From: an uncultured delta proteobacterium
GTDB lineage: Bacteria; Desulfobacterota; Binatia; JACPRU01
Assembly (NCBI GenBank): GCA_963745025.1
Contig: CAVUWD010000006.1
Coordinates: forward strand, 160,001 to 224,000
DNA length: 64,000 bases
Direction: 5' to 3'
Part shown: one piece after another, positions 51,301 through 62,585 of the stretch
Layout: every line of letters starts with the position of its first letter
Numbering within the stretch: the stretch's first letter is position 1
Position numbers and translations under genes: made by a program
Notes under the pieces: model-generated
Databases searched by the model: none
Told to the model about the DNA's origin: nothing
What the model saw: only the letters and a program-made list of their open reading frames with translations

Positions 51301-52455
51301 ATGGCGAACGAGCCCGTGATCGACGGCCACTGCGACCCGCGCTTCGCCTCGGTGCGAGACGCCTTCATCGCGAACTTCGAGGCAGGGCGGGAGGTCGGCG
51401 CATCGTTCGCCGCGACGGTGAACGGTGAGTTCGTGGTAGACCTCTGGGGCGGCTACGCCGACGCGGCGAGCACGCGGCCGTGGGAGCGCGATACCCTCAT
51501 CAACGTGTTCTCGACGACGAAAGCGATGACGGCGCTCTGCGCCCACATCCTCGTCGATGGCGGCGCACTGGACGTGGATTCCCCCGTCGCGCGTTACTGG
51601 CCTGAGTTCGTGCAGGCGGGGAAAGAGAGGATCACGACGCGCCAACTCCTGAGCCACACAGCCGGGCTCGCGGGGATCCGGCAGCCGCTCCCGACCGAGG
51701 CGCTGTACGATTGGAAGCGAATGATCGAGGTGCTCGCCGCCGAAGCGCCCTGGTGGGAGCCCGGCACCGCCAACGGCTACCATCCTCTGACCTACGGCTA
51801 CCTGGTCGGGGAGGTGATCCGGCGCATCAGCGGAAAAACACCGGGAGCATTCTTTCGCGACGAGGTCGCCGCGCCCCTCGAGGCGGACTTTCATATCGGT
51901 CTCCCCGAATCCGAAGACGACCGCGTAGCGGAGATGGTGCCCCCGACCACGGGAGAGCTTGCGGCGGTGGGGGCACCGACGACTATCGACCCTGAAACGC
52001 TCAGCGGCCGGGCGATCGCCAACCCGCCGCTCCGAGCCGAGTTTGCCAACCGGCCCGAGTGGCGGCGAGCAGAGATTCCGGCGGCGAACGGCCACGGCGA
52101 CGCCCGGTCGGTGGCGCGGGTGATGGCGCTCCTCGCTTGCGGCGGAAAGCTTGATGGCGTGCGGCTGCTCAGCGAGCAGACGATCGCCAAGGCAATCGCA
52201 GAGCAGCGCTACGCCAAAGATCTCGTCCTCGGGTTCAAGATGCGCTGGGGCCTCGGCTTCATGCTGACCAGCCGACAGCTTCCAGTTGGGCCGAACCCGC
52301 GGACGTTCGGCCACGGAGGATGGGGCGGCTCACTCGGCTTCGCCGACCTCGACGCCCGCGTGAGCTGGTCCTACATTATGAACAAGATGTCGCCCGGCAC
52401 GGCAGGCGACACGCGCGTCGCGGGGATGCTCGCGGCGCTCTACGGCGCGCTGTAG
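51301..52455 (+). CDS. Serine hydrolase, beta-lactamase-related (family VIII esterase-like)
   Basis: FSTTK (SxxK); LLSHTAGL; GYH; FGHGGWGG. Confidence 0.9.
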   Translation: MANEPVIDGHCDPRFASVRDAFIANFEAGREVGASFAATVNGEFVVDLWGGYADAASTRPWERDTLINVFSTTKAMTALCAHILVDGGALDVDSPVARYWPEFVQAGKERITTRQLLSHTAGLAGIRQPLPTEALYDWKRMIEVLAAEAPWWEPGTANGYHPLTYGYLVGEVIRRISGKTPGAFFRDEVAAPLEADFHIGLPESEDDRVAEMVPPTTGELAAVGAPTTIDPETLSGRAIANPPLRAEFANRPEWRRAEIPAANGHGDARSVARVMALLACGGKLDGVRLLSEQTIAKAIAEQRYAKDLVLGFKMRWGLGFMLTSRQLPVGPNPRTFGHGGWGGSLGFADLDARVSWSYIMNKMSPGTAGDTRVAGMLAALYGAL

Positions 52456-52632: not shown

Positions 52633-52647
52633 TGGCACGGAATTTGG
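52633..52647 (+). promoter_or_regulatory. Putative sigma54 (-24/-12) promoter of the hydrogenase operon
   Basis: TGGCACG-GAAT-TTGG versus consensus TGGCACG-N4-TTGC, 26 nt before the hypA start; one mismatch at -12. Confidence 0.5.
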
Positions 52648-52673
52648 GAGTCGAGGTGTTCGGAGGCTCGGCC

Positions 52674-53060
52674 GTGCACGAGCTGTCGATCTCGAGCGGG
52701 ATCATCGAGGTAGCGCGACGGGCAGTCACGTCGCCGCCGCTTTCGGCTGCGAGGGTTCTCCGGGTGGATGTCCGGATCGGGCGTCTCACCGGGATCGTTC
52801 CCGACATCCTTCGGCACTACTACGCGCTCCTGACGGTCGGTACCGAGCTCGAAGGGTCCGTCCTGGCCGTCGAGGTGGTTCCGGTCCGTGGCCGGTGCAG
52901 CGACTGTTCGGCGGCCTTCGAGATCGATGACCTGAGCTTCGGCTGCCCATTTTGCGGCTCGGGATTCTCGGAGATCTTCTCGGGGAAAGAGCTCGAGGTC
53001 GTTTCGCTCGAGACCGCCGAGGATGGCAACGAGAATCGCGAGGTGGCGTATGGAAATTGA
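52674..53060 (+). CDS. hypA: Hydrogenase maturation nickel metallochaperone HypA
   Basis: MHELSI; CSDC...CPFCGS; GKEL. Confidence 0.95.
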   Translation: MHELSISSGIIEVARRAVTSPPLSAARVLRVDVRIGRLTGIVPDILRHYYALLTVGTELEGSVLAVEVVPVRGRCSDCSAAFEIDDLSFGCPFCGSGFSEIFSGKELEVVSLETAEDGNENREVAYGN

Positions 53061-53742
53061 GATTGGGCGCAAGGTTCTCGAGACGAACGACCGGATTGCC
53101 GATCAGAACCGGAGGGTCTTCGACGTACTCGGCGCCTTCGTCGTGAACCTGATGAGCGCTCCGGGAAGCGGCAAGACGTCGCTCCTCGAGCGCACGCTCG
53201 CCGCCGTCGACGGCACCCTGCGCACCGCCGTGATCGAAGGCGACGTGCGCGGCTCGCTCGACGCCGATCGGCTGGCGCGCTTCGAGCTGCCGATCGTCCA
53301 GATCAACACGGACCCGCTCTTCGGCGGCGAGTGTCATCTCGACGCGCCGATGGTGCGTGATGCGCTCGAGCGGCTTCCCCGCGAGTGGTTCGACCTCGTC
53401 GTCATCGAGAACGTCGGCAACCTGGTCTGCCCGGCGGAGTTCCGCGTCGGGGAGGATCTCAAGGTGATGGTGCTCTCCGTCGCCGAAGGCGACGACAAGC
53501 CGCTCAAGTATCCCTTGATGTTCCAGGAGTCCGCGTTGCTGCTGCTCAACAAGATCGATCTCCTCCCTCACGTCGACTTCGACGTCGCGCGCTTTCGCGC
53601 CAACGCCGCGCGAGTCAATCCGCGCCTCGAGGTCATCGAGACCTCGGCGCGGACGGGAGAAGGCATCGATCGGTGGATCGACTGGCTTCGTGCTCGAGTC
53701 GGCGAAGCCGCGAGCGGGAGGCGCTCATGTGGCGAGACCTGA
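53050..53742 (+). CDS. hypB: Hydrogenase nickel incorporation GTPase HypB (short form)
   Basis: SAPGSGKTSLLE; ECHLDA; ENVGNLVCPA; NKIDL. Confidence 0.96.
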   Translation: MEIEIGRKVLETNDRIADQNRRVFDVLGAFVVNLMSAPGSGKTSLLERTLAAVDGTLRTAVIEGDVRGSLDADRLARFELPIVQINTDPLFGGECHLDAPMVRDALERLPREWFDLVVIENVGNLVCPAEFRVGEDLKVMVLSVAEGDDKPLKYPLMFQESALLLLNKIDLLPHVDFDVARFRANAARVNPRLEVIETSARTGEGIDRWIDWLRARVGEAASGRRSCGET

Positions 53743-54890
53743 ACGGTTCGATCGTCCCTCGAGCGGCTGAGGCCGAGGACTGGGAGGGCTGGCCCGGCTC
53801 GCGCTGGCAGGAGCGTGGCGTCTCGCGCCGCGCCTTTCTGCGCTTCTGCGCTGCGATGACTGCGACGCTCGCCTTGCCCGAGCGCTACTTGATGCGCGTC
53901 GCGCACGCGCTCGAAGCGGTTCGCCGCCCCCCGCTCGTCTGGCTCGAGTTCCAGGATTGCGCCGGCTGCACGGAGTCGTTCCTGCGCGCGAGCCGACCCT
54001 CGGTGGGCGACATCGCGTTGGACATCCTCTCGGTCAATTACCACGAGACCATCATGGCGCCGTCGGGAAAGGCTGCCGAAAAATCGCTCCGCGACACGAT
54101 CGAACAAGAGAAGGGCAAGTACCTCGTGGTCGTCGAGGGATCGATTCCGACCAAGGAAGGTGGCGTCTACTGCACCATCGGCGGGCGCACCGCGCTCGAC
54201 ATCGCCCGCGAGGTATGCGGCCAAGCGGCCGCCACGATCACGGTCGGCGCCTGTGCCTTCTACGGCGGCTGGCCCTCGGCACGGCCGAACCCGACGGGCG
54301 CGGTCGGCGTCGCGCAGGCGGTTCCCGGCATCACGCTGATCAACCTACCGGGATGTCCCCCGAACGCGGTCAACATCACGGCGACGGTCGTCCACTACCT
54401 GACCTTCGGGGCACTGCCGGCGACGGATCAGCAGGGGCGACCGCTCTTCGCTTACGGAGAGCGGATCCACGACCGCTGCGAGCGTCGGGCGCATTTCGAC
54501 GCCGGCGAATTCGTCGAGGAGTGGGGCGACCAGGGGCACCGGCAGGGCTGGTGCCTCTACAAGATGGGCTGCAAGGGCCCGGAGACCTACCACAACTGCC
54601 CGACGGTGCGGTGGAACGACGGCACGAGCTGGCCGGTCGGCTCCGGACACGGCTGCGTGGGCTGCGCCGAGCAGTACTTCTGGGACACCATGTCGCCCTT
54701 CTACCGCCGGCTCCCGGAGGTCCCGGGTGCGGGGATACAGACCACGGCGAATCGAATCGGCGGGTGGATCGTCGGCGGCACGGCCGCTGCCTTCGCCGCC
54801 CACGGCGTGGCATCGGCCGTGCGGGCCAAGCTCGTTCCGCGCGCGCCGCAGCAGGATGCTGAGGAGCCCTCGACGAAAAGCGAATCGTGA
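53727..54890 (+). CDS. Membrane-bound [NiFe]-hydrogenase small subunit (Tat signal, C-terminal anchor)
   Basis: SRRAFLR; DCAGCTES; GACAFYGG; PGCPP; HDRCERR; CLYKMGCKGP; CVGCAE; C-terminal TM segment. Confidence 0.95.
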   Translation: MWRDLNGSIVPRAAEAEDWEGWPGSRWQERGVSRRAFLRFCAAMTATLALPERYLMRVAHALEAVRRPPLVWLEFQDCAGCTESFLRASRPSVGDIALDILSVNYHETIMAPSGKAAEKSLRDTIEQEKGKYLVVVEGSIPTKEGGVYCTIGGRTALDIAREVCGQAAATITVGACAFYGGWPSARPNPTGAVGVAQAVPGITLINLPGCPPNAVNITATVVHYLTFGALPATDQQGRPLFAYGERIHDRCERRAHFDAGEFVEEWGDQGHRQGWCLYKMGCKGPETYHNCPTVRWNDGTSWPVGSGHGCVGCAEQYFWDTMSPFYRRLPEVPGAGIQTTANRIGGWIVGGTAAAFAAHGVASAVRAKLVPRAPQQDAEEPSTKSES

Positions 54891-54909
54891 CCCAGGAAGG
54901 AGTCCAATC

Positions 54910-56619
54910 ATGGCGAAGATCGCGATCGATCCGATCACCCGCATCGAGGGACATCTGCGCATCGAAGCCCAGGTCGAAGGCGGAAAGGTCGCCGACGCCT
55001 GGAGCTCGAGCACGATGTTCCGCGGCATGGAGCTCGTGCTGAAGGGGCGCGATCCGCGCGACGCTTGGCTCTTCGCGCAGCGCATTTGAGGCGTTTGAAC
55101 GACGGTTCACGCCAACTGCTCCGTGCGAGCAGTAGAAAACGCCCTCGGTATCGAGATTCCGGACAACGCCCGGATCATCCGCAATCTGATTGCGGGCATC
55201 CAGTACGTCCAGGACCATGTGGTCCACTTCTATCATCTGCACGCGCTCGACTGGGTCGATATCACGAGCGCGCTCCAGGCCGATCCTGCCGAGACCTCGA
55301 AGCTCGCGCAGTCGCTTTCGCCTTGGGCGAAATCGAGCGCGGTCTACTTCAAGAGCGTGAAGGACCGTCTCAAGAAGTTCGTCGATTCCGGCCAGCTCGG
55401 GCTCTTCGCCAACGGTTATTGGGGGCACCCGGCGTACAAACTGCCTCCCGCCGCGAATCTCATGGCGGTCGCTCATTACCTCGAAGCGCTGGACTGGCAG
55501 CGCGAGGTCATTCGCATTCACGCGATCCTCGGCTCGAAGAATCCCCACCCGCAGACCTATCTGGTGGGAGGCATGGCGATCCCACTCGACCCGAACAGCT
55601 CGGCGGCGCTGAACGCCGACAAGCTCGCCCTTCAACGCCAGCTCCTGGTGCAGGCGAAGCAGTTCGTCGATGAGGTCTACGTGCCCGACCTCCTCGCCGT
55701 CGCCTCGTTCTACAAGGAATGGGCGGGGATCGGTGCGGGGATCGGCAACTACCTCGCCTGCGGCGACTTTCCCCTTGATTCGAGCGGCGATCCGTCGCGG
55801 CTGTGGCAGCCCGCGGGAGTGATCCGGAACCGCGACCTCGCCAAGATCCATCCCTTCGAGCACCAGAAGGTGACGGAGTACGTGACACACTCCTGGTACG
55901 AATACTCAGGCAGCGACGGCGCTTCGAAGCACCCGTGGGACGGCGAGACGAATCCTCGCTACAGCGGCCCCAAGCCGCCCTACGAGTTCCTCGACACCGA
56001 CGGCAAGTACTCTTGGCTCAAGGCGCCGCGCTACGAGGACGAGCCCATGGAGGTGGGGCCTCTCGCGCGCATGCTCGTCGCTTACGCTTCGGGGCACGGA
56101 GCGGTCAAGACGGCGGTAACCGGCGTCCTCGCTCATCTCGGCGTGGGCCCCGAGGCGCTTTTCTCCACCCTCGGACGAATCGCGGCTCGCGGCATCGAGA
56201 CCCAGGTGACCGCGGCCGCGCTTCTCGACTGGCACGATCAGCTCGTCGCCAACATCCGGCGAGGCGATCTGCGCATCCACAACGGTGCGAAGTGGGATCC
56301 ATCTCGCTGGCCTCCCGAAGCGCGCGGCTTCGGCTTCCACGAGGCGCCGCGCGGTGCGCTCGGTCACTGGGTGCGGATCGAAAAGGGTGCGGTGTCGAAC
56401 TACCAGTGCGTGGTGCCGAGCACCTGGAACGCCTCGCCGCGCGATGCCAAGGGAAAGCGCGGTCCCTACGAGGCGGCGCTGCTCGAGACGCCGGTCGCGG
56501 ACCCGGAGAAGCCTGTCGAGATCCTACGCACCGTCCACTCCTTCGATCCCTGCATGGCGTGCGCCGTTCACGTGAGCGGAGTCGGGCGCCGGCCAATCAC
56601 GCGGATCCAGGTGGCGTAG
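54910..56619 (+). CDS. [NiFe]-hydrogenase large subunit, 569 aa, with two in-frame TGA (predicted Sec60 and Sec63) in the L1 motif
   Basis: IDPITRIEGHL...RGME...DPRDAWLFAQRI*GV*TTVHANCSVRAVENAL in one continuous frame; EAPRGALGHW; VVPSTWN; L2 motif SFDPCMACAVH plus a 15-aa cleavable tail. Confidence 0.92.
55115..55133 (+). promoter_or_regulatory. Putative bacterial SECIS hairpin for the hydrogenase UGA codons
   Basis: ACTGCTC [CGTGC] GAGCAGT, perfect 7-bp stem; the loop starts 23 nt after the second TGA and 32 nt after the first. Confidence 0.72.
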
Positions 56620-56621
56620 TC

Positions 56622-57308
56622 ATGACGGACACGACACAAACGACGGCCCCGACAGTCCCGGTGGCTCCCTACCGGCAAGTCTACGTATGGGAGTTCCCGG
56701 TGCGTCTCACGCACTGGGTGAATTTCGCGGCGATCGGCGTACTCTCGGTGACCGGCTTCTACATCGGCCACCCATTTCTAGCCGGCGGCGGCTCGCTCAT
56801 GAGCTGGATGAGCGCCGTTCACCGCCTGGCCGGGTACGCGCTCGTCGCGAGCCTCCTCCTCCGCGTTTATTGGGCCTTCGCCGGGAACCAGTGGGCGTCC
56901 TGGCGGGCGCTATTCCCATGGCTCACGCCCGATGGGCGAGCAGCGATGCGGCAGACCTTCCTCTATTACACCTTCGTGCGGCGCGAGCCGCCGCGCGAGG
57001 TCGGTCACAACCCTCTCGCCGGCATGGCGTACTCGGCGGTCGTGGCGCTCCTCGCGGCGGAGGTGGCGAGCGGGTTTGCCCTCTATTCGATGGGGCGGGG
57101 CGGGGGCTGGACGATCGCCTTCGGCTGGGTCTTCTGGATCGCCAGTCCGCAGATCGTGCGCCTCGCGCATCATCTCATCATGTGGCTGCTCCTGGGCTTC
57201 GCGGTCCACCACGTCTACAGCTGTGTGCTGTTGGAGGTGGAAGAGCGAAACGGCCTCGTCACCAGTATCTTCTCGGGTTACAAGCTCGTCCGCAGGAGCG
57301 TGCACTGA
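56622..57308 (+). CDS. Ni/Fe-hydrogenase b-type cytochrome subunit
   Basis: YVWEFPVRLTHW; TGFYIGHP; GHNPLAG; HHLIMW; HHVY; SIFSGYK. Confidence 0.93.
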   Translation: MTDTTQTTAPTVPVAPYRQVYVWEFPVRLTHWVNFAAIGVLSVTGFYIGHPFLAGGGSLMSWMSAVHRLAGYALVASLLLRVYWAFAGNQWASWRALFPWLTPDGRAAMRQTFLYYTFVRREPPREVGHNPLAGMAYSAVVALLAAEVASGFALYSMGRGGGWTIAFGWVFWIASPQIVRLAHHLIMWLLLGFAVHHVYSCVLLEVEERNGLVTSIFSGYKLVRRSVH

Positions 57309-57838
57309 AGACGTTGGTGCTCGGGTGCGGCAACGTTTTGCTCGGCGACGACGGGGCCGGCGTGTGGGTGATCGAGCAACTGCGGTGCGCCTACGTGTTT
57401 CCGGCGAACGTGTCGCTCGTCGAAGCGGGAACGCTCGGCCTCGATCTCCTCGCGGAGTTCGATGGCGTAGAGCGTCTGTTGGTCGTGGACGCGGTCGCCG
57501 CCGGCCGCGCGCCCGGAGACCTCGTCCGCCTGGAGGGAGACCAGGTGCCCTCGGTGCTCGAGCTCAAGACATCGCCTCACCAGGTGGGGCTCGCGGATCT
57601 CTTGGCCGGGGCCAAGCTCCTCGCCCGCTGGCCGCGCCAAGTCGTGCTCTGGGGCGTCGAGCCGGCGCTTCTCGATCCGGGAACGAGGTTCTCGCCCGAG
57701 GTCCAGCGCATGCTGCCGTCCCTGGAGGCGGCGGTACTCGACGAGCTCGCCCGCTGGGGGATCGAGGTCATGCCTCTCGAGGATGCACCGCCGCCGGCTC
57801 TGTGGTGGCTTCCGCCGACGACGGAGGGGGCGCGGTGA
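57305..57838 (+). CDS. Hydrogenase maturation protease (HyaD/HybD family); probable CTG start
   Basis: KTLVLGCGNVLLGDDGAGV; GTLG; VVDAV; SPHQVGL; AGGAG RBS 6 nt before the CTG. Confidence 0.9.
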   Translation: MKTLVLGCGNVLLGDDGAGVWVIEQLRCAYVFPANVSLVEAGTLGLDLLAEFDGVERLLVVDAVAAGRAPGDLVRLEGDQVPSVLELKTSPHQVGLADLLAGAKLLARWPRQVVLWGVEPALLDPGTRFSPEVQRMLPSLEAAVLDELARWGIEVMPLEDAPPPALWWLPPTTEGAR

Positions 57839-60114
57839 GCCAGCCGACCGCATGCCGCGTCTTGGTCGAGGGCATCGTCCAGGGAGTCGGATTCCGCCCC
57901 TTCGTGCATGCGATCGCGCGCCAGTACCAGCTGGCCGGCCGCGTGCGCAACACGAGCCACGGAGTGGAGATCGAGGTCGAGGGAGAGCGCGAGGAGATCG
58001 GTGAGTTCGTCGCAGCGCTGCGCGATCGCCCGCCGCCGCTCGCGCGCATCGAGCGGATCGAAGCGCAGGAGATCGTGCCCTCCGGGGTCGAGGGCTTTCG
58101 CATCGATCCCTCGGCCGACGGCGATGGCTTCCTTCCGATCTCGGCTGACATCGCGACTTGCGAGGAGTGCCTGCGGGAGGTCGAGGACGTCTCCGATCGC
58201 CGCTTCGGCTACGCCTTCACGAACTGCACGAGCTGCGGGCCGCGCTTCACGATCCTCCGCTCGGTTCCCTACGACCGGCCGAACACGACGATGGCCGAGT
58301 TCGCGATGTGCTCCGCGTGCCGCGCGGAGTACGAGGATCCAACCGACCGCCGTTTCCACGCGGAGCCCATCGCCTGCCCGCAGTGCGGGCCTTCGCTGGC
58401 CCTGCTCGACGCCACCGGACGCACACTGCCGGGTGACCCGCTGACCGGGATCCGCCGCGCGCTCGCGGACGGGCGTATCGTCGCGATCAAGGGAATCGGC
58501 GGTTTCCATCTCGCTTGCGACGCGCGGCAGGAGATGGCGGTGCGGCGACTGCGCCGCCGCAAGGTGCGCGAGGGCAAGCCGTTCGCCCTGATGGCGGCGG
58601 ACCTCGCCGAGGCCGAGCGACTCTGCTTCACCTCTGCGCGGGAGCGGCGCCTCCTCGAGTCGCGTGCGCGGCCGATCGTGGTTCTACGCGAGCGACCCGA
58701 TTCGGGGATCGCCGCCTCGGTCGCCCGGCCGCTTTGCCATCTCGGCGTCATGCTGCCCTACTCGCCGCTCCATCCTCTGCTCTTCTCCGACGCCGCCTGT
58801 CCGCGCGCGCTCGTGCTCACCAGCGGGAACCGCTGCGGCGAGCCGCTCGCTCGCGACAACGGCGAAGCGCTCGGGCGGCTCGGCGGAATTGCCGACCTCT
58901 TTCTCGTCCACGACCGCTCGATCGAGGTGCGCTGCGACGATTCGGTCGTCCGCGTGGTGGGCGGAGAGGAGCTGCCGATCCGACGCTCGCGCGGCTACGC
59001 CCCGTATCCAGTCCGTCTACCCCTCGAATCGCCGCCGCTGCTCGCGTGCGGGGCCGACCTGAAGAGCACGGTGTGCGTCGCGCGCGGCCGCCACGCGTTC
59101 CTCTCACCACATGTCGGTGACCTCGAGGACGCGGAGACCTGGCGGTCGTACGCGCGGATGGCAGCGCACATGGAATCCATCTTCCGCGTGCGGCCCGAGG
59201 CAATCGTCCACGACGCTCACCCGGACTACTTCTCGACCCGCTACGCCCTCGGGCGCGATCGGTCGCTGCCGCATCTCGCCGTGCAGCACCACCACGCCCA
59301 CGTGGTCTCCTGCATGATCGAGAGCGAGCTGGCGGGAAGCGTGATCGGCGTCGCTTTCGACGGCACGGGTTACGGCGCCGACGGGGCGATCTGGGGCGGC
59401 GAGTTCCTGGTGGCGGACTACGCGTCTTTCGAACGTGGCGGCCACCTCGCTTACGTGCCGATGCCGGGAGCTGCCCGGGCCGTCCATGAGCCCTTCCGCA
59501 TGGCACTGGCGCACCTGATCGCGGGATGCGGTTCCACGCGGGGCATCGCCGCGGCTGCGGTCGGGGCGACGGAGGCGGAGATCGCCGCCGTCCAGTGGCA
59601 GATCGCTCACGCCGTGAATGCGCCGCTCACCTCGAGCATCGGGCGGCTCTTCGACGCGGTCGCCTCGCTCGCCGGCATCCGTCACCGTGCGCTGTACGAG
59701 GGTCAGGCGGCGATGGAGCTCGAGGCTTGCGCCGCCCGCGGAGAGACGGGGTCGTATCCGTTCCCGATCACCGGCGAGCGGCCGACGGTCGCCGATCCCG
59801 GCCCGCTCGTCGCCGCGGTCGTGGAGGAGATCGCACGGGGGATCGCGCCGTCGATCGTGAGCGCCCGCTTCCACAACTCGGTGGCGCGGATGGTCGTCGA
59901 GATGTGCGAGCGGATCCGCGCCGCGACCGGTCTCTCCCGCGTGGTCTTGACCGGAGGAGTATTCCAGAACGCGACGCTGCTCGAGCAAGCCGTCGAGCGG
60001 CTCGCGGCGCGCGGCTTCGCGGCGCACCGCCACCGCAAGGTGCCCCCGAACGACGGCGGCATCGCGCTCGGTCAAGCGGCGATCGCCGCCGCGCGCCTGA
60101 CGGAGGACCGCTGA
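57835..60114 (+). CDS. hypF: Carbamoyltransferase HypF
   Basis: GIVQGVGFRPFV; CEEC/CTSC/CSAC/CPQC zinc fingers; QHHHAH; DGTGYG; PPNDGGIALGQ. Confidence 0.96.
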   Translation: MSQPTACRVLVEGIVQGVGFRPFVHAIARQYQLAGRVRNTSHGVEIEVEGEREEIGEFVAALRDRPPPLARIERIEAQEIVPSGVEGFRIDPSADGDGFLPISADIATCEECLREVEDVSDRRFGYAFTNCTSCGPRFTILRSVPYDRPNTTMAEFAMCSACRAEYEDPTDRRFHAEPIACPQCGPSLALLDATGRTLPGDPLTGIRRALADGRIVAIKGIGGFHLACDARQEMAVRRLRRRKVREGKPFALMAADLAEAERLCFTSARERRLLESRARPIVVLRERPDSGIAASVARPLCHLGVMLPYSPLHPLLFSDAACPRALVLTSGNRCGEPLARDNGEALGRLGGIADLFLVHDRSIEVRCDDSVVRVVGGEELPIRRSRGYAPYPVRLPLESPPLLACGADLKSTVCVARGRHAFLSPHVGDLEDAETWRSYARMAAHMESIFRVRPEAIVHDAHPDYFSTRYALGRDRSLPHLAVQHHHAHVVSCMIESELAGSVIGVAFDGTGYGADGAIWGGEFLVADYASFERGGHLAYVPMPGAARAVHEPFRMALAHLIAGCGSTRGIAAAAVGATEAEIAAVQWQIAHAVNAPLTSSIGRLFDAVASLAGIRHRALYEGQAAMELEACAARGETGSYPFPITGERPTVADPGPLVAAVVEEIARGIAPSIVSARFHNSVARMVVEMCERIRAATGLSRVVLTGGVFQNATLLEQAVERLAARGFAAHRHRKVPPNDGGIALGQAAIAAARLTEDR

Positions 60115-60116
60115 CC

Positions 60117-60419
60117 GTGTGCCTCGGTGTTCCCGGCAAGGTGCTCGAGGTCCAGGGAAACGTTGCCGTCGTGGATTTCTTCGGCCTGCGTCGGCCGGTA
60201 CTGCTCGACGTCGTCGACGAGCCGGTGGCTCCGGGCGACTTCGTGCTCAATCACGTGGGCTACGCCATCCGCCGGATCCCGCCCGACCAGGCGCAGGCGA
60301 CGCTCGCGTTCTACCAGCAGTTGCTCGGCGAGGCGGCCGAGGACGCGATGGCCGCCGACGTTCGTGGAGAGATCACAGGCACCGGCGAGCCAAAGGGACC
60401 CGACGATGGATCCGACTGA
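60117..60419 (+). CDS. hypC: Hydrogenase assembly chaperone HypC
   Basis: MCLGVPGKV; GDFVLNHVGYAI. Confidence 0.95.
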   Translation: MCLGVPGKVLEVQGNVAVVDFFGLRRPVLLDVVDEPVAPGDFVLNHVGYAIRRIPPDQAQATLAFYQQLLGEAAEDAMAADVRGEITGTGEPKGPDDGSD

Positions 60420-61545
60420 GCAGGCGCGTCGCGAACTGAAGTTCCGCGATCCCGGGAAAGGTCGCGCGCTCGCCGCAACGCTCGCCCGCGTGGTCGCCGA
60501 CCTCGGGCGGGCTCCGGTTTCGGTCATGCACGTCTGCGGTAGCCACGAGCAGGCAATTGCGAAGTTCGGATTGCGCGCCACCTTTCCGAAGGGGCTCGAC
60601 GTGATCATGGGGCCGGGCTGCCCGGTGTGCGTGACCGACGTTCCGGAGGTGGACGAGGCGGTGGCGCTGGCGGAGCAGGGAGTGCGCGTCGCCACCTACG
60701 GCGACATGCTGCGGGTACCCGGGAGCGCCGCCTCGCTCGCCGACGCCCAGGCGGAAGGCGCGAGCATCGACGTCGTCTATGGCGCGGCGCAGGCGGTCGA
60801 GGTCGCGCGTCGCACCGAGGACGAGGTGGTATTCTTCGCCTCCGGCTTCGAGACGACGGCGGTGGCGACCGCGGCCGTGCTGCTCGGCCATCCGCCCACG
60901 AACTTCTCGGTGCTGTCGGCGCACAAGTACATTCCCCCGGTCATGGAGATCGTTGCCGAGATGCCCGGGACGCGCATCGAGGGGTTCCTCGCCGCCGGCC
61001 ATGCCGCAACCATCACCGGCTGGGGGGTCTTCGAGCCCTTCGTCGAGCGCCACGGGATCCCGGTGGTCGTGGCCGGGTTCGAGCCGCTCGACATCCTGGC
61101 GGGGCTCGTGAAGCTGGTCGATCTCATCGCCGAAGGTCGGCCGCGCGTCGAGAACATGTATCCGCGCTGCGTGACGCGAGAGGGGAATCGGAACGCCCAG
61201 GAGCGACTCTGGCGGGTCTTTCGGCCGACCGGGGGATGCTGGCGGGGGATCGCCCACGTCCCCAACGGGAACCTGAGACTCCGCGACGAGTTCGCCGAGT
61301 TCGATGCGCGCCGCCGCTTCATGATCGACCTCCGCGGCGTCCGGATGCGCGCTCCGCGAGCGCTCGTCGACCAGTGCCGCTGCGGCGAGATCATGTCCGG
61401 CACCGCCTCGCCACGCGATTGCCGACTCTTCGGGAGAGAATGCGTGCCTGAGACGCCCGTCGGCGCGTGCATGGTGAGCAGCGAAGGCACGTGCAAGATC
61501 TGGCACCTGTACGGCGGCCACCCGGATCTCGGGAGCCGGGCATGA
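60406..61545 (+). CDS. hypD: Hydrogenase formation protein HypD
   Basis: HVCGSHE; GPGCPVCV; GFETT; CRCGEI..C..FGREC.P..PVGACMVSSEGTC. Confidence 0.96.
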   Translation: MDPTEQARRELKFRDPGKGRALAATLARVVADLGRAPVSVMHVCGSHEQAIAKFGLRATFPKGLDVIMGPGCPVCVTDVPEVDEAVALAEQGVRVATYGDMLRVPGSAASLADAQAEGASIDVVYGAAQAVEVARRTEDEVVFFASGFETTAVATAAVLLGHPPTNFSVLSAHKYIPPVMEIVAEMPGTRIEGFLAAGHAATITGWGVFEPFVERHGIPVVVAGFEPLDILAGLVKLVDLIAEGRPRVENMYPRCVTREGNRNAQERLWRVFRPTGGCWRGIAHVPNGNLRLRDEFAEFDARRRFMIDLRGVRMRAPRALVDQCRCGEIMSGTASPRDCRLFGRECVPETPVGACMVSSEGTCKIWHLYGGHPDLGSRA

Positions 61546-62585
61546 CGCTTCGGTCGGCGGCGCGCGACGAGCGCATCGGGCTCAAACACGGTGCAGGTGG
61601 CCGAGCCATGCGCGCGCTCATCGAGCAGGTTCTCGCCCGCGGCTTCATCGACCCCGCGGGCGCGAACGGCTTCGGTCTAGCGGCGATGGACGACGGTGCC
61701 GCCTTGCGCATTGGGGATCGCTGGCTCGTGATCACCACCGACTCGCACGTCATCCACCCGATCTTCTTCCCCGGGGGTGACATCGGGCGACTCGCCGTCG
61801 CGGGTACGGTCAACGACCTCGCGGTGATGGGGGTGACCGATATCCTCGGCCTGACCTGTGCGGTGATCGTCGAAGTCGGCTTCCCGCGTGCGGATCTCGA
61901 GCGCATTCAGCAATCCATGCAGGCGACTTGCCTGGAGGCCGGCACGACCGTGCTGACCGGCGACACCAAGGTGATGGGGAAAGGGGAGATCGACGGTATC
62001 GTCATCAACACCACTGGAATCGGTCTCACCAGCCGAGTGGTCCCCGACCGCGGACTCGGCCCCGGAGATCGCATCCTCGTCAGCGGAACGATCGGCGATC
62101 ATGGGCTCGCCATTCTCGCCACTCGCCACGGCTTGGAGCTGGAAGGCGAGATCCGTTCCGACGTTACTCCGCTCGGAGGTCTGGTGCAGACGGTGCTCGC
62201 CGCCGCCGGCGATGGGGTCGTGGCGATGAAGGATCCGACGCGCGGGGGCCTCGCGAGCGCCCTCCACGAGATGGCGGAGAAGAGCGAGGTCGGCGTCCTC
62301 CTCGACGAGGCGGCGATCCCGGTTTCGCCGGCGGTTCGTTCGGCCGCCGAACTCCTCGGCATCGATCCGCTGCACGTGGCGAACGAAGGCAAGGCGGTGA
62401 TCGGGGTGCACCCCGAGGCGGCGGAGAAGGTTCTCGCGGCGCTACGCGCCCACCCCGCGGGCCTCGACGCCGCGATCGTCGGCACCTGTGTCGCGGAGCC
62501 GATCGGGCGGATCATCGTCGACACAGGCTTTGGGCGACGCCTGCTGGTCGAGCCGGAGGGCGAGCCTCTGCCTCGCATCTGCTGA
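61542..62585 (+). CDS. hypE: Carbamoyl dehydratase HypE
   Basis: HGAGG; FFPGGDIGRLAVAGTVNDL; GDTKV; DPTRGG; ANEGK; C-terminal PRIC. Confidence 0.97.
   Translation: MTLRSAARDERIGLKHGAGGRAMRALIEQVLARGFIDPAGANGFGLAAMDDGAALRIGDRWLVITTDSHVIHPIFFPGGDIGRLAVAGTVNDLAVMGVTDILGLTCAVIVEVGFPRADLERIQQSMQATCLEAGTTVLTGDTKVMGKGEIDGIVINTTGIGLTSRVVPDRGLGPGDRILVSGTIGDHGLAILATRHGLELEGEIRSDVTPLGGLVQTVLAAAGDGVVAMKDPTRGGLASALHEMAEKSEVGVLLDEAAIPVSPAVRSAAELLGIDPLHVANEGKAVIGVHPEAAEKVLAALRAHPAGLDAAIVGTCVAEPIGRIIVDTGFGRRLLVEPEGEPLPRIC

Follow-up and report, generated by a model that had tools for sequence, protein, structure and literature searches.

A [NiFe]-hydrogenase gene with two in-frame TGA codons

The window, that is, the whole 64,000-nt stretch of DNA analysed here, comes from the source genome G000, a metagenome-assembled genome (MAG) of 5.65 Mb with 92.65% completeness and 7.6% contamination, and carries a [NiFe]-hydrogenase operon in which the large-subunit gene contains two in-frame TGA codons. 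Translation of 54910-56619 indicated that the TGA at codons 60 and 63 are the only internal stops of this frame, and that the segment 55081-55110 (CGC ATT TGA GGC GTT TGA ACG ACG GTT CAC) would be read as R-I-U-G-V-U-T-T-V-H, in which U denotes selenocysteine (Sec). In the alignment with the best solved relative of the read-through protein, 3myr_B (748 bits, residues 3-554), both TGA codons fall on the cysteine (Cys) pair of RICGVCT. The C-terminal Ni-binding motif, DPCMACAVH at residues 546-554, is all Cys, and beyond His554 the protein has a 15-residue extension that a maturation protease would remove. A Shine-Dalgarno-like GGAAGGAG lies upstream of the ATG at 54910, and a genome search of G000 with PF00374 returned this large subunit as its sole match. 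A first-pass annotation made from the letters of the window had described an otherwise unbroken frame whose two stops coincide with the cysteines of the L1 motif, together with an all-Cys C-terminal motif, and each of these statements was borne out. It had also taken TGA to be a normal stop here, which holds nearby, where the small-subunit gene ends with TGA (54888-54890); TGA is thus an ordinary stop within the hydrogenase operon. Hereafter, the codon labels UxxU, CxxU, UxxC and CxxC refer to the N-terminal Ni motif, and UGA1 and UGA2 to codons 60 and 63.

Conservation and distribution of the UxxU motif

Both TGA codons are kept in the same-genus genome G001 (85% protein and ~91% DNA identity), in which the 45 nt downstream of the second TGA are identical to those of the window, while synonymous sites elsewhere differ. 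The G001 orthologue (L024/L028, G001:C11:8378-10085) matches in two pieces, query residues 1-417 and 410-569, a split that points to a frameshift or an erroneous indel in the G001 assembly and leaves both TGA untouched. Within a phylum sample of 401 genomes, 197 of which have a match at E <= 1e-100 and for which all motif counts are lower bounds, UxxU was present in at least five genomes (G000, G114, G193, G293 and G295) and CxxU in at least ten further ones, and all UxxU and CxxU genomes among the matches listed have an all-Cys C-terminal motif.

One genome per species was then searched with a degenerate DNA pattern for R-x-U-G-V-U-T-x-x-H-(5)-R. There were 101 matching stretches, of which 81 are hydrogenase large-subunit genes with QRIUGVUTTVH and 20 have no hydrogenase context; by our own estimate, ~9 matches would be expected by chance. 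The figure of 81 is a lower bound, because the pattern misses variants such as that of G293 (R-T-U-G-V-U-T-M-T-H, where AGG encodes the Arg). Going by the titles of their records, 80 true matches divide into 59 from Chloroflexota (Anaerolineae accounting for 39), 14 from Nitrospirota and one each from Acidobacteriota, Methylomirabilota, Deferrimicrobiota, Thermodesulfobacteriota, a 'delta proteobacterium', an archaeon-titled record and an untitled record; the 81st (L097) lies at a contig end, and all true pattern matches are MAGs. The archaeon-titled record is probably mis-binned. The closest relative of the window gene (L152, UxxU, 83% identity) is found in a MAG titled as an ammonia-oxidising archaeon, where a bacterial-type Group 1 hydrogenase points to mis-binning of the contig.

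Across these relatives, CxxC, CxxU and UxxU forms alternate at exactly the two N-terminal Cys columns, so that both checks proposed at the outset, namely TGA conservation and Cys/TGA alternation in relatives, gave positive answers in G001, the phylum sample and the pattern scan. The fourth form also occurs: a UxxC scan of metagenome contigs gave 15 matches, two of which (L173 and L177) are hydrogenase genes with TGA at the first Cys only, though the UxxC and UxxU counts are not comparable because the scanned collections differ. Judged from these comparisons, the placement of a double TGA at Ni-ligand codons is far beyond chance.

Selection, independent contigs and public gene calls

Purifying selection was found on both sides of the TGA codons. 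Against G001, the ratio of nonsynonymous to synonymous substitution rates (dN/dS) was 0.03 for codons 1-59 and 0.14 for codons 64-417, and comparison of codons 1-59 with four further UxxU genes gave 0.025-0.066; values this low indicate that the stretch ahead of the first TGA is translated as protein. Parts of the window were found in 24 public runs from 23 studies, namely sediment, soil, wetland, bog and rice-paddy metagenomes (this reading of habitat sets aside runs in which the word share was small), and the contigs of four runs were compared with the window, the interpretation being confined to the parts that they cover. A DNA contig (X1, 54936-56351, 16 differences), which may represent the source sample of the window, and two RNA-library contigs from different studies (X13, 54992-55529, and X16, 54936-55391, 11 differences each) span both TGA codons, and among the differences listed none falls at 55087-55098. 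Of the variable sites listed within the gene, 28 of 31 are at third codon positions by our own count. The independent DNA and RNA-library contigs thus carry the TGA codons as far as the listed differences go.

These data bear first on the possibility of a pseudogene or an assembly error, with the gene inactivated by two nonsense mutations or miscalls. The 7.6% contamination of the source MAG, the two-piece match of the G001 orthologue and a TGA at a conserved Trp in the relative L058, which resembles damage or error, could be taken in its favour; they are opposed by the recurrence of the same two TGA in 81 species-level genomes and in independent contigs of four runs, by a frame that is otherwise intact under dN/dS of 0.03-0.14, and by an intact hyp operon in a genome without another large-subunit gene to use it. 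On sequence grounds this explanation is already contradicted by the comparative data, and we regard it as extremely unlikely; the earlier proposal of an intact gene rather than nonsense damage therefore stands, with purifying selection on both sides of the TGA codons and their recurrence in relatives.

Public gene calls follow a different model of this locus. The best 120 matches in a collection of 5.8 billion clustered proteins include 75 CxxC proteins of full length and 69-77% identity, and the other 45 are proteins of 495-498 aa with 80-100% identity that start at (M/V)RAVE or (M/V)EDAL. The 45 short proteins are gene calls that start right after the second TGA, one of them being the window's own open reading frame (ORF) and some being NCBI-sourced, as had been anticipated when gene callers were suggested to truncate the gene. 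These calls match a model in which translation starts after the two TGA codons (a 498-aa ORF from 55123) and the first 59 codons form a separate short ORF or are untranslated. Such a protein would have neither the RIEGH region of the N-terminus nor the two N-terminal Ni ligands, and could for that reason not bind the metal site; moreover, dN/dS of codons 1-59 is 0.03-0.07 in five comparisons, the Shine-Dalgarno-like sequence lies ahead of the ATG at 54910, and the covariation described below would be left unexplained. We consider a genuinely truncated product very unlikely.

A covarying SECIS-like hairpin in the coding sequence

Alignment of the 66 nt from the first UGA across 80 distinct UxxU genes revealed a hairpin resembling a selenocysteine insertion sequence (SECIS), with a 6-bp stem (columns 30-35 with 41-46) and a 5-nt loop, CGUGC. 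The stem starts 17 nt past UGA2 and 26 nt past UGA1, and the loop 23 and 32 nt past them, respectively. Paired cells amount to 98.3% of the stem compared with 82.5% in shuffles (0 of 500 as high), both sides of a pair are changed in 60 cells where 17 would be expected, and covariation scores 0.374 compared with 0.103, whereas stems slid along the alignment as controls had 22-64% of their cells paired. Compensatory changes were found at pair 31-45 (UA in 45 genes, GC in 19, AU in 13), pair 32-44 (GC in 58, CG in 20) and pair 33-43 (CG in 71, UA in 8). The loop bases G37 and U38 do not vary, and fixation reaches 90% or more at the synonymous sites 36, 39 and 42. Since the compensatory columns make up two whole codons, those of residues 70 and 74, the RNA stem couples the choice of amino acids at these positions; the coupled residues 70/74 are Cys/Ala, Ala/Ser, Ala/Gly or Ser/Ala, and the codon-pair type has undergone at least nine changes on the protein tree among 60 UxxU rows.

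Of 87 UxxU loci, a few of which are duplicate entries of one gene, 84 can form all six pairs; in the same register, the full stem is present in 1 of 27 CxxC and 2 of 11 CxxU relatives; among the remaining CxxU relatives, eight of nine have, by inspection, an equivalent hairpin in a shifted register. The CxxC exception with the full hairpin is L034 (G370), whose family also contains CxxU (L030, L031) and UxxU (L035, L059) members. The UxxC gene L177 has the same hairpin as the UxxU genes. The position of the hairpin matches that in CxxU relatives, and it would seem that the first UGA was a later addition, upstream of a SECIS that already existed. A stem-loop downstream of the UGA with a conserved loop G, as expected of a SECIS, is thus present, and binding by SelB is predicted; this covarying element is evidence for Sec that the first-pass annotation did not have.

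Two other structures were considered and rejected. A second hairpin after UGA1 (columns 4-14 with 19-27) had seemed plausible in the window and in the minimum-energy fold before the comparison, and its pairing is 88.1% against 87.6% in shuffles (59 of 500 as high). A long-range helix in the fold, between GGCGUUU after UGA1 and a downstream AAACGCC, is, by inspection, not kept in the other aligned sequences.

Selenocysteine machinery and the identity of the inserted residue

The Sec machinery whose presence had been set as a check was found in full in G000. A tRNA-Sec(UCA) scored 76.5 bits and was called SeC by ARAGORN, and selA (571 bits), selB (397 bits) and selD (385 bits) stand side by side on contig 20. 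The selD gene (contig 20, 20417-21343; L017) is itself a selenoprotein gene: one in-frame TGA occupies its G-U-x-x-K site, and an 8-bp hairpin with the loop GGC starts 9 nt downstream of this TGA, its loop 17 nt downstream. On this gene content the G000 organism is predicted to be able to decode UGA as Sec. Among five other UxxU genomes, selA was found in all five and tRNA-Sec in three.

In the reading that we consider likely, both UGA codons are decoded as Sec in a functional Group 1 uptake hydrogenase. The large subunit would belong to a periplasmic, membrane-anchored uptake enzyme in which UGA-encoded Sec replaces both N-terminal motif cysteines, and a single SelB-binding SECIS hairpin within the coding sequence would direct tRNA-Sec to both UGA codons. 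The mature site would then hold one terminal Ni-selenolate and one Ni-Fe bridging selenolate in addition to the two usual C-terminal thiolates, and a standard small subunit would relay the electrons taken from H2 to the b-type cytochrome and on to the quinone pool. The di-Sec proposal of the first-pass annotation is supported in this respect by the machinery, the conservation, the hairpin and the selection; from these we infer Sec rather than Cys, and likewise Sec at either codon, the service of one hairpin to both codons and the chemistry of the site.

Several observations weigh against the di-Sec reading. tRNA-Sec was not found in two of the five other UxxU genomes, both of them fragmented. 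No SECIS-type Rfam family matched within 54900-55400, where the sole match was snoRNA-like and attributable to chance (E 7.2), and the fold of 64 nt alone gave z = -1.99. The hairpin loop lies 23 and 32 nt past UGA2 and UGA1, compared with 17 nt in the selD gene of G000, and with the hairpin 26-32 nt from UGA1, the decoding of this codon as Sec is an assumption. The shuffle controls overstate significance because the 80 sequences are related. As to the independent contigs, there are 16 further differences beyond those listed, so identity at 55087-55098 is not proven, and RNA-library contigs can derive from DNA.

The strongest competing explanation concerns what is inserted. One or both UGA codons might be read as Cys, through a SelB-dependent tRNA(ReC) or near-cognate read-through, to give a mature CxxU, UxxC or CxxC enzyme, and the SECIS would then serve recoding generally rather than di-Sec chemistry. 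In September 2026, UXXU-type Group 4 [NiFeSe] hydrogenases, comprising 16 UXXU sequences, were predicted in silico (Takano et al. 2026, PMC13582414; cited here and below from excerpts of its text). According to these excerpts, tRNA(ReC) is enriched in UXXU genomes, tRNA(ReC)-like genes occur in ~56% of UXXU Group 4 genomes, and the authors allow Cys at either UGA in tRNA(ReC) genomes (PMC13582414). In our data, the position of the hairpin, sited as in CxxU relatives and seemingly tuned to UGA2 with UGA1 9 nt more distant, would fit mixed decoding, as would frequent and recent Sec/Cys switches (L075 and P0023 agree at 542 of 551 positions). In G000, however, the 11 matches to the tRNA-Sec model comprise one genuine tRNA-Sec and otherwise ordinary Leu, Ser, Tyr, Gly, Thr, Arg and Lys tRNAs, and ARAGORN found a single ordinary tRNA-Cys(GCA); no tRNA(ReC), extra tRNA-Sec-like gene or tRNA with a UCA/GCA anticodon beyond these was found in the 92.65%-complete genome, a search made with no dedicated model and in an incomplete MAG, from which a tRNA(ReC) gene could therefore be missing. 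Furthermore, a one-base change to TGC or TGT would be neutral or favoured if Cys were inserted, yet UGA1 is kept in 81 species-level genomes of several phyla, and UxxC forms with UGA1 alone exist, one of which (L177) retains the same hairpin. Mixed or Cys decoding is accordingly viewed as rather unlikely, though it deserves more weight than the explanations by truncation or damage.

Evolution of Sec and Cys forms

A FastTree phylogeny of 173 rows (60 UxxU, 11 CxxU and 102 CxxC), from which incomplete loci, L113 and truncated database proteins were left out, required 20 changes of the UxxU label, at least 13 of them forced by well-supported branches. An IQ-TREE quick search on a 66-row subset, hand-picked after the FastTree result, gave 18 changes with at least 11 forced, and in the same subset the approximately unbiased (AU) test rejected the grouping of all Sec-types together (log-likelihood difference 1411, p 7.9e-55). 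On the tree, the window gene is neighboured by the UxxU genes L152, L145, L121 and L139, and the nearest CxxC protein is P0004 (77% identity).

Individual cases illustrate such alternation. The nine differences between L075 (UxxU) and P0023 (CxxC) all lie within the first 99 residues, which looks like a recombined or strain-chimeric N-terminal segment carrying a Sec/Cys switch. One hydrogenase family contains CxxC (L034 in G370), CxxU (L030/L031 in G267 and G347) and UxxU (L035/L059 in G114 and G295) members, for which a stepwise series or a recent reversion is possible. A long-branched Group 1 clade of ~550-aa proteins (L057, L058 and L060-L066, from the eight genomes G293, G263, G348, G175, G366 with two genes, G109, G183 and G116) consists of eight CxxU members and the UxxU member L057; its SECIS-like hairpin is longer and shifted in register, and the clade may correspond to the Group 1 CXXU forms of the literature. 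In the CxxU-type L058 (G263) of this clade, a second in-frame TGA stands in place of a conserved Trp (that of Y-W-G-H-P-A-Y in relatives), more probably through error or damage than as a Sec codon.

Hydrogenase group of the enzyme

The composition of the operon and the profile scores point to one class of enzyme. A PF00374 large subunit with both metal-binding motifs, and TGA at the two N-terminal Cys positions, adjoins a twin-arginine small subunit, which has a twin-arginine translocation (Tat)-type signal, SRRAFLRF, ahead of the mature domain and a hydrophobic C-terminal tail, and the operon includes a cytochrome b and a dedicated C-terminal endopeptidase. The two supernumerary proximal-cluster Cys of O2-tolerant Group 1d enzymes were not found in the small subunit, which has C-A-G-C and G-G instead, a reading made by alignment position against Hyd-1 and Ralstonia MBH chains that appear to be Gly variants; the native extra Cys of Hyd-1 and Ralstonia MBH presumably stand at these C-A-G-C and G-G positions. 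Owing to the operon content and to a small subunit without the two extra cysteines, the enzyme is classed, from its sequence, as a standard-type Group 1 membrane-bound uptake [NiFe] hydrogenase.

The Hyd-1 and Hyd-2 equivalog models scored 637 and 624 bits, under their cut-offs of 1101 and 969. The Sec of classical HysA-type enzymes (DPUxxC) is absent, the motif being DPCMACAVH; the NiFeSe models likewise stayed under cut-off (NF045518, 398 bits against 780; NF033181, 545 against 600), and HysA-type [NiFeSe] structures matched at ~320 bits compared with 748 for 3myr_B. As for Group 4, NuoD models reached 32-34 bits, a Tat small subunit and cytochrome b accompany the large subunit in the operon, and the window gene has the UXXU motif in common with the Group 4 set without belonging to that group.

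Relation to known selenium-containing hydrogenases

Group 1 [NiFe] hydrogenases are structurally and electrochemically the best understood hydrogenases, and selenium in the active site is the classic case of natural tuning. To our knowledge, natural hydrogenase Sec before 2026 was placed almost only at one C-terminal ligand position. Classical [NiFeSe] enzymes (HysA type of Desulfovibrio/Desulfomicrobium; methanococcal Vhu/Fru) share with the window gene the PF00374 superfamily and the replacement of a sulfur ligand of Ni by selenium, but their single Sec takes the first position of their C-terminal motif, whereas the window gene has its Sec codons in the N-terminal motif and an all-Cys C-terminus. 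The Allochromatium vinosum membrane-bound [NiFe] hydrogenase (PDB 3MYR) aligns in its RICGVCT and DPCxACAVH motifs and differs in having Cys at all four ligand positions; its operon, as we take it, encodes Isp-type partners and not cytochrome b.

The first-pass annotation knew of no enzyme like this one, a statement that holds for characterised enzymes but has been overtaken for predictions, because UXXU has been reported for Group 4 and the idea of a di-Sec motif is no longer unprecedented (PMC13582414). The excerpts of that report indicate that its survey excluded Groups 1-3 by HydDB, that a single SECIS was proposed for both UGA, that UXXC and UXXU were unrecognised prior to the Group 4 set, and that Sec variants of Groups 1 and 3 are C-terminal save for three N-terminal CXXU sequences, for which Baltazar 2011 is cited (PMC13582414). 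The Group 4 UXXU genes resemble the window gene in a single downstream SECIS-like hairpin with a G near the start of the apical loop, in a mosaic distribution of Sec- and Cys-types and in being hidden by gene callers; as far as the excerpts describe them, they differ in encoding energy-converting, Nuo-like enzymes, whereas the window enzyme is a Tat-exported Group 1 hydrogenase with cytochrome b, and their 16 UXXU sequences compare with 81 species-level genomes from one narrow pattern here. The N-terminal CXXU variants of Groups 1 and 3 have Sec at the bridging position as well, but, in the same excerpts, at this second position only (PMC13582414); the CxxU relatives found here share the hairpin position with UxxU forms.

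Selenium at ligand positions other than the C-terminal one has so far been approached only with engineered single variants, as far as excerpts of the relevant study tell (Evans et al. 2021, PMC8020662). There, the single Sec variants C76U and C79U of Escherichia coli Hyd-1 had 3% and 13% of native activity, respectively, with a lower Michaelis constant (KM) for H2, and were nearly inactive under prolonged 10% O2 (PMC8020662). Like the window gene as we read it, they place Sec at these two ligands of a Group 1 enzyme, and the activity that they retain favours the di-Sec reading; each of them has only one of the two substitutions, introduced with an EF-Tu/UAG system into an O2-tolerant enzyme with a 6-Cys proximal cluster (PMC8020662); the window gene would combine both substitutions, with UGA and a SECIS, next to a standard small subunit. 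Excerpts of two prokaryotic selenoproteome reviews describe hydrogenases only with UxxC or CxxU motifs, and a paper on Anaerolineales single-cell genomes mentions Sec for formate dehydrogenases only. No report of UxxU in a Group 1 enzyme was found in the open literature, supplements excluded, and its occurrence in Group 1 appears to be unreported.

By the comparative evidence, the window gene is assigned to a large, conserved and mis-annotated UxxU Group 1 lineage with a covarying SECIS in its coding region. The fuller proposition, that this is a large unrecognised Group 1 lineage with a natural di-selenolate Ni-Fe site, in which one SECIS serves both codons and the CxxC, CxxU and UxxU states have been toggled many times, seems to us somewhat favoured by the evidence. 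If it holds, di-selenolate Group 1 enzymes would be common in uncultured Anaerolineae and Nitrospirota and would occur also in Acidobacteriota, Methylomirabilota and Desulfobacterota-type MAGs; with the codons 9 nt apart, SelB would need to work across two different spacings, and the SECIS stem would force coupled replacements at residues 70 and 74. Natural selenium at both N-terminal ligands, including the Ni-Fe bridge, would supply an evolutionary answer to what selenium does at other ligand positions, and for translation it would mean a single bacterial SECIS shared by two UGA codons at a distance of 9 nt. Since annotation pipelines truncate UxxU genes, the capacity for H2 oxidation in Anaerolineae, Nitrospirota and related lineages of sediment and soil may have been misjudged. 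Recurrent changes between Cys and Sec, as in the L034, L030/L031 and L035/L059 family, offer a natural comparison series.

Coordinates of the operon and neighbouring genes

The small subunit, cytochrome b, protease and hypA, B, F, C, D and E genes that had been named as flanking the large subunit were all recovered by profile matches. The score of hypA is under the curated NCBIfam cut-off, yet the whole model is covered.

Features of the hydrogenase locus, in window coordinates
Feature	Position	Strand	Evidence and remarks
hypA, nickel metallochaperone (ORF limits)	52644..53060	+	TIGR00100 66.3 bits, E 2.3e-18, cut-off 88.1
hypB	53023..53742	+	TIGR00073 264.5 bits, above cut-off
[NiFe] hydrogenase small subunit, TGA stop	53727..54890	+	TIGR00391 446.8 bits; PF14720, PF01058; Met at 53727
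[NiFe] hydrogenase large subunit	54910..56619	+	569 aa with both TGA read through; PF00374 790.8 bits
UGA 1, codon 60	55087..55089	+	First Cys of RxCGxC, terminal Ni ligand; TGA in G001 and 81 pattern matches
UGA 2, codon 63	55096..55098	+	Second Cys of RxCGxC, Ni-Fe bridging ligand; TGA in UxxU and CxxU relatives
SECIS-like hairpin	55116..55132	+	Stems 55116-55121 / 55127-55132; loop 55122-55126 CGUGC
C-terminal Ni-binding motif DPCMACAVH, all Cys	56545..56571	+	Residues 546-554
b-type cytochrome membrane subunit	56622..57308	+	TIGR02125 140.9 bits, above cut-off
HyaD/HybD-type maturation endopeptidase (start approximate)	57308..57838	+	TIGR00072 140.5 bits, residues 210-354 of ORF 56687-57838
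hypF (start approximate)	57865..60114	+	TIGR00143 774.6 bits, residues 312-1052 of ORF 56932-60114
hypC (matched stretch)	60120..60311	+	PF01455 76.5 bits at G000:C6:220120-220311
hypD (start approximate)	60430..61545	+	TIGR00075 388.5 bits
hypE	61467..62585	+	TIGR02124 380.7 bits

Upstream of the hyp genes, at 51301-52455 of the window, lies an ORF of the esterase/beta-lactamase fold (LipL-like, 232 bits against a cut-off of 650), which is probably unrelated to the hydrogenase.

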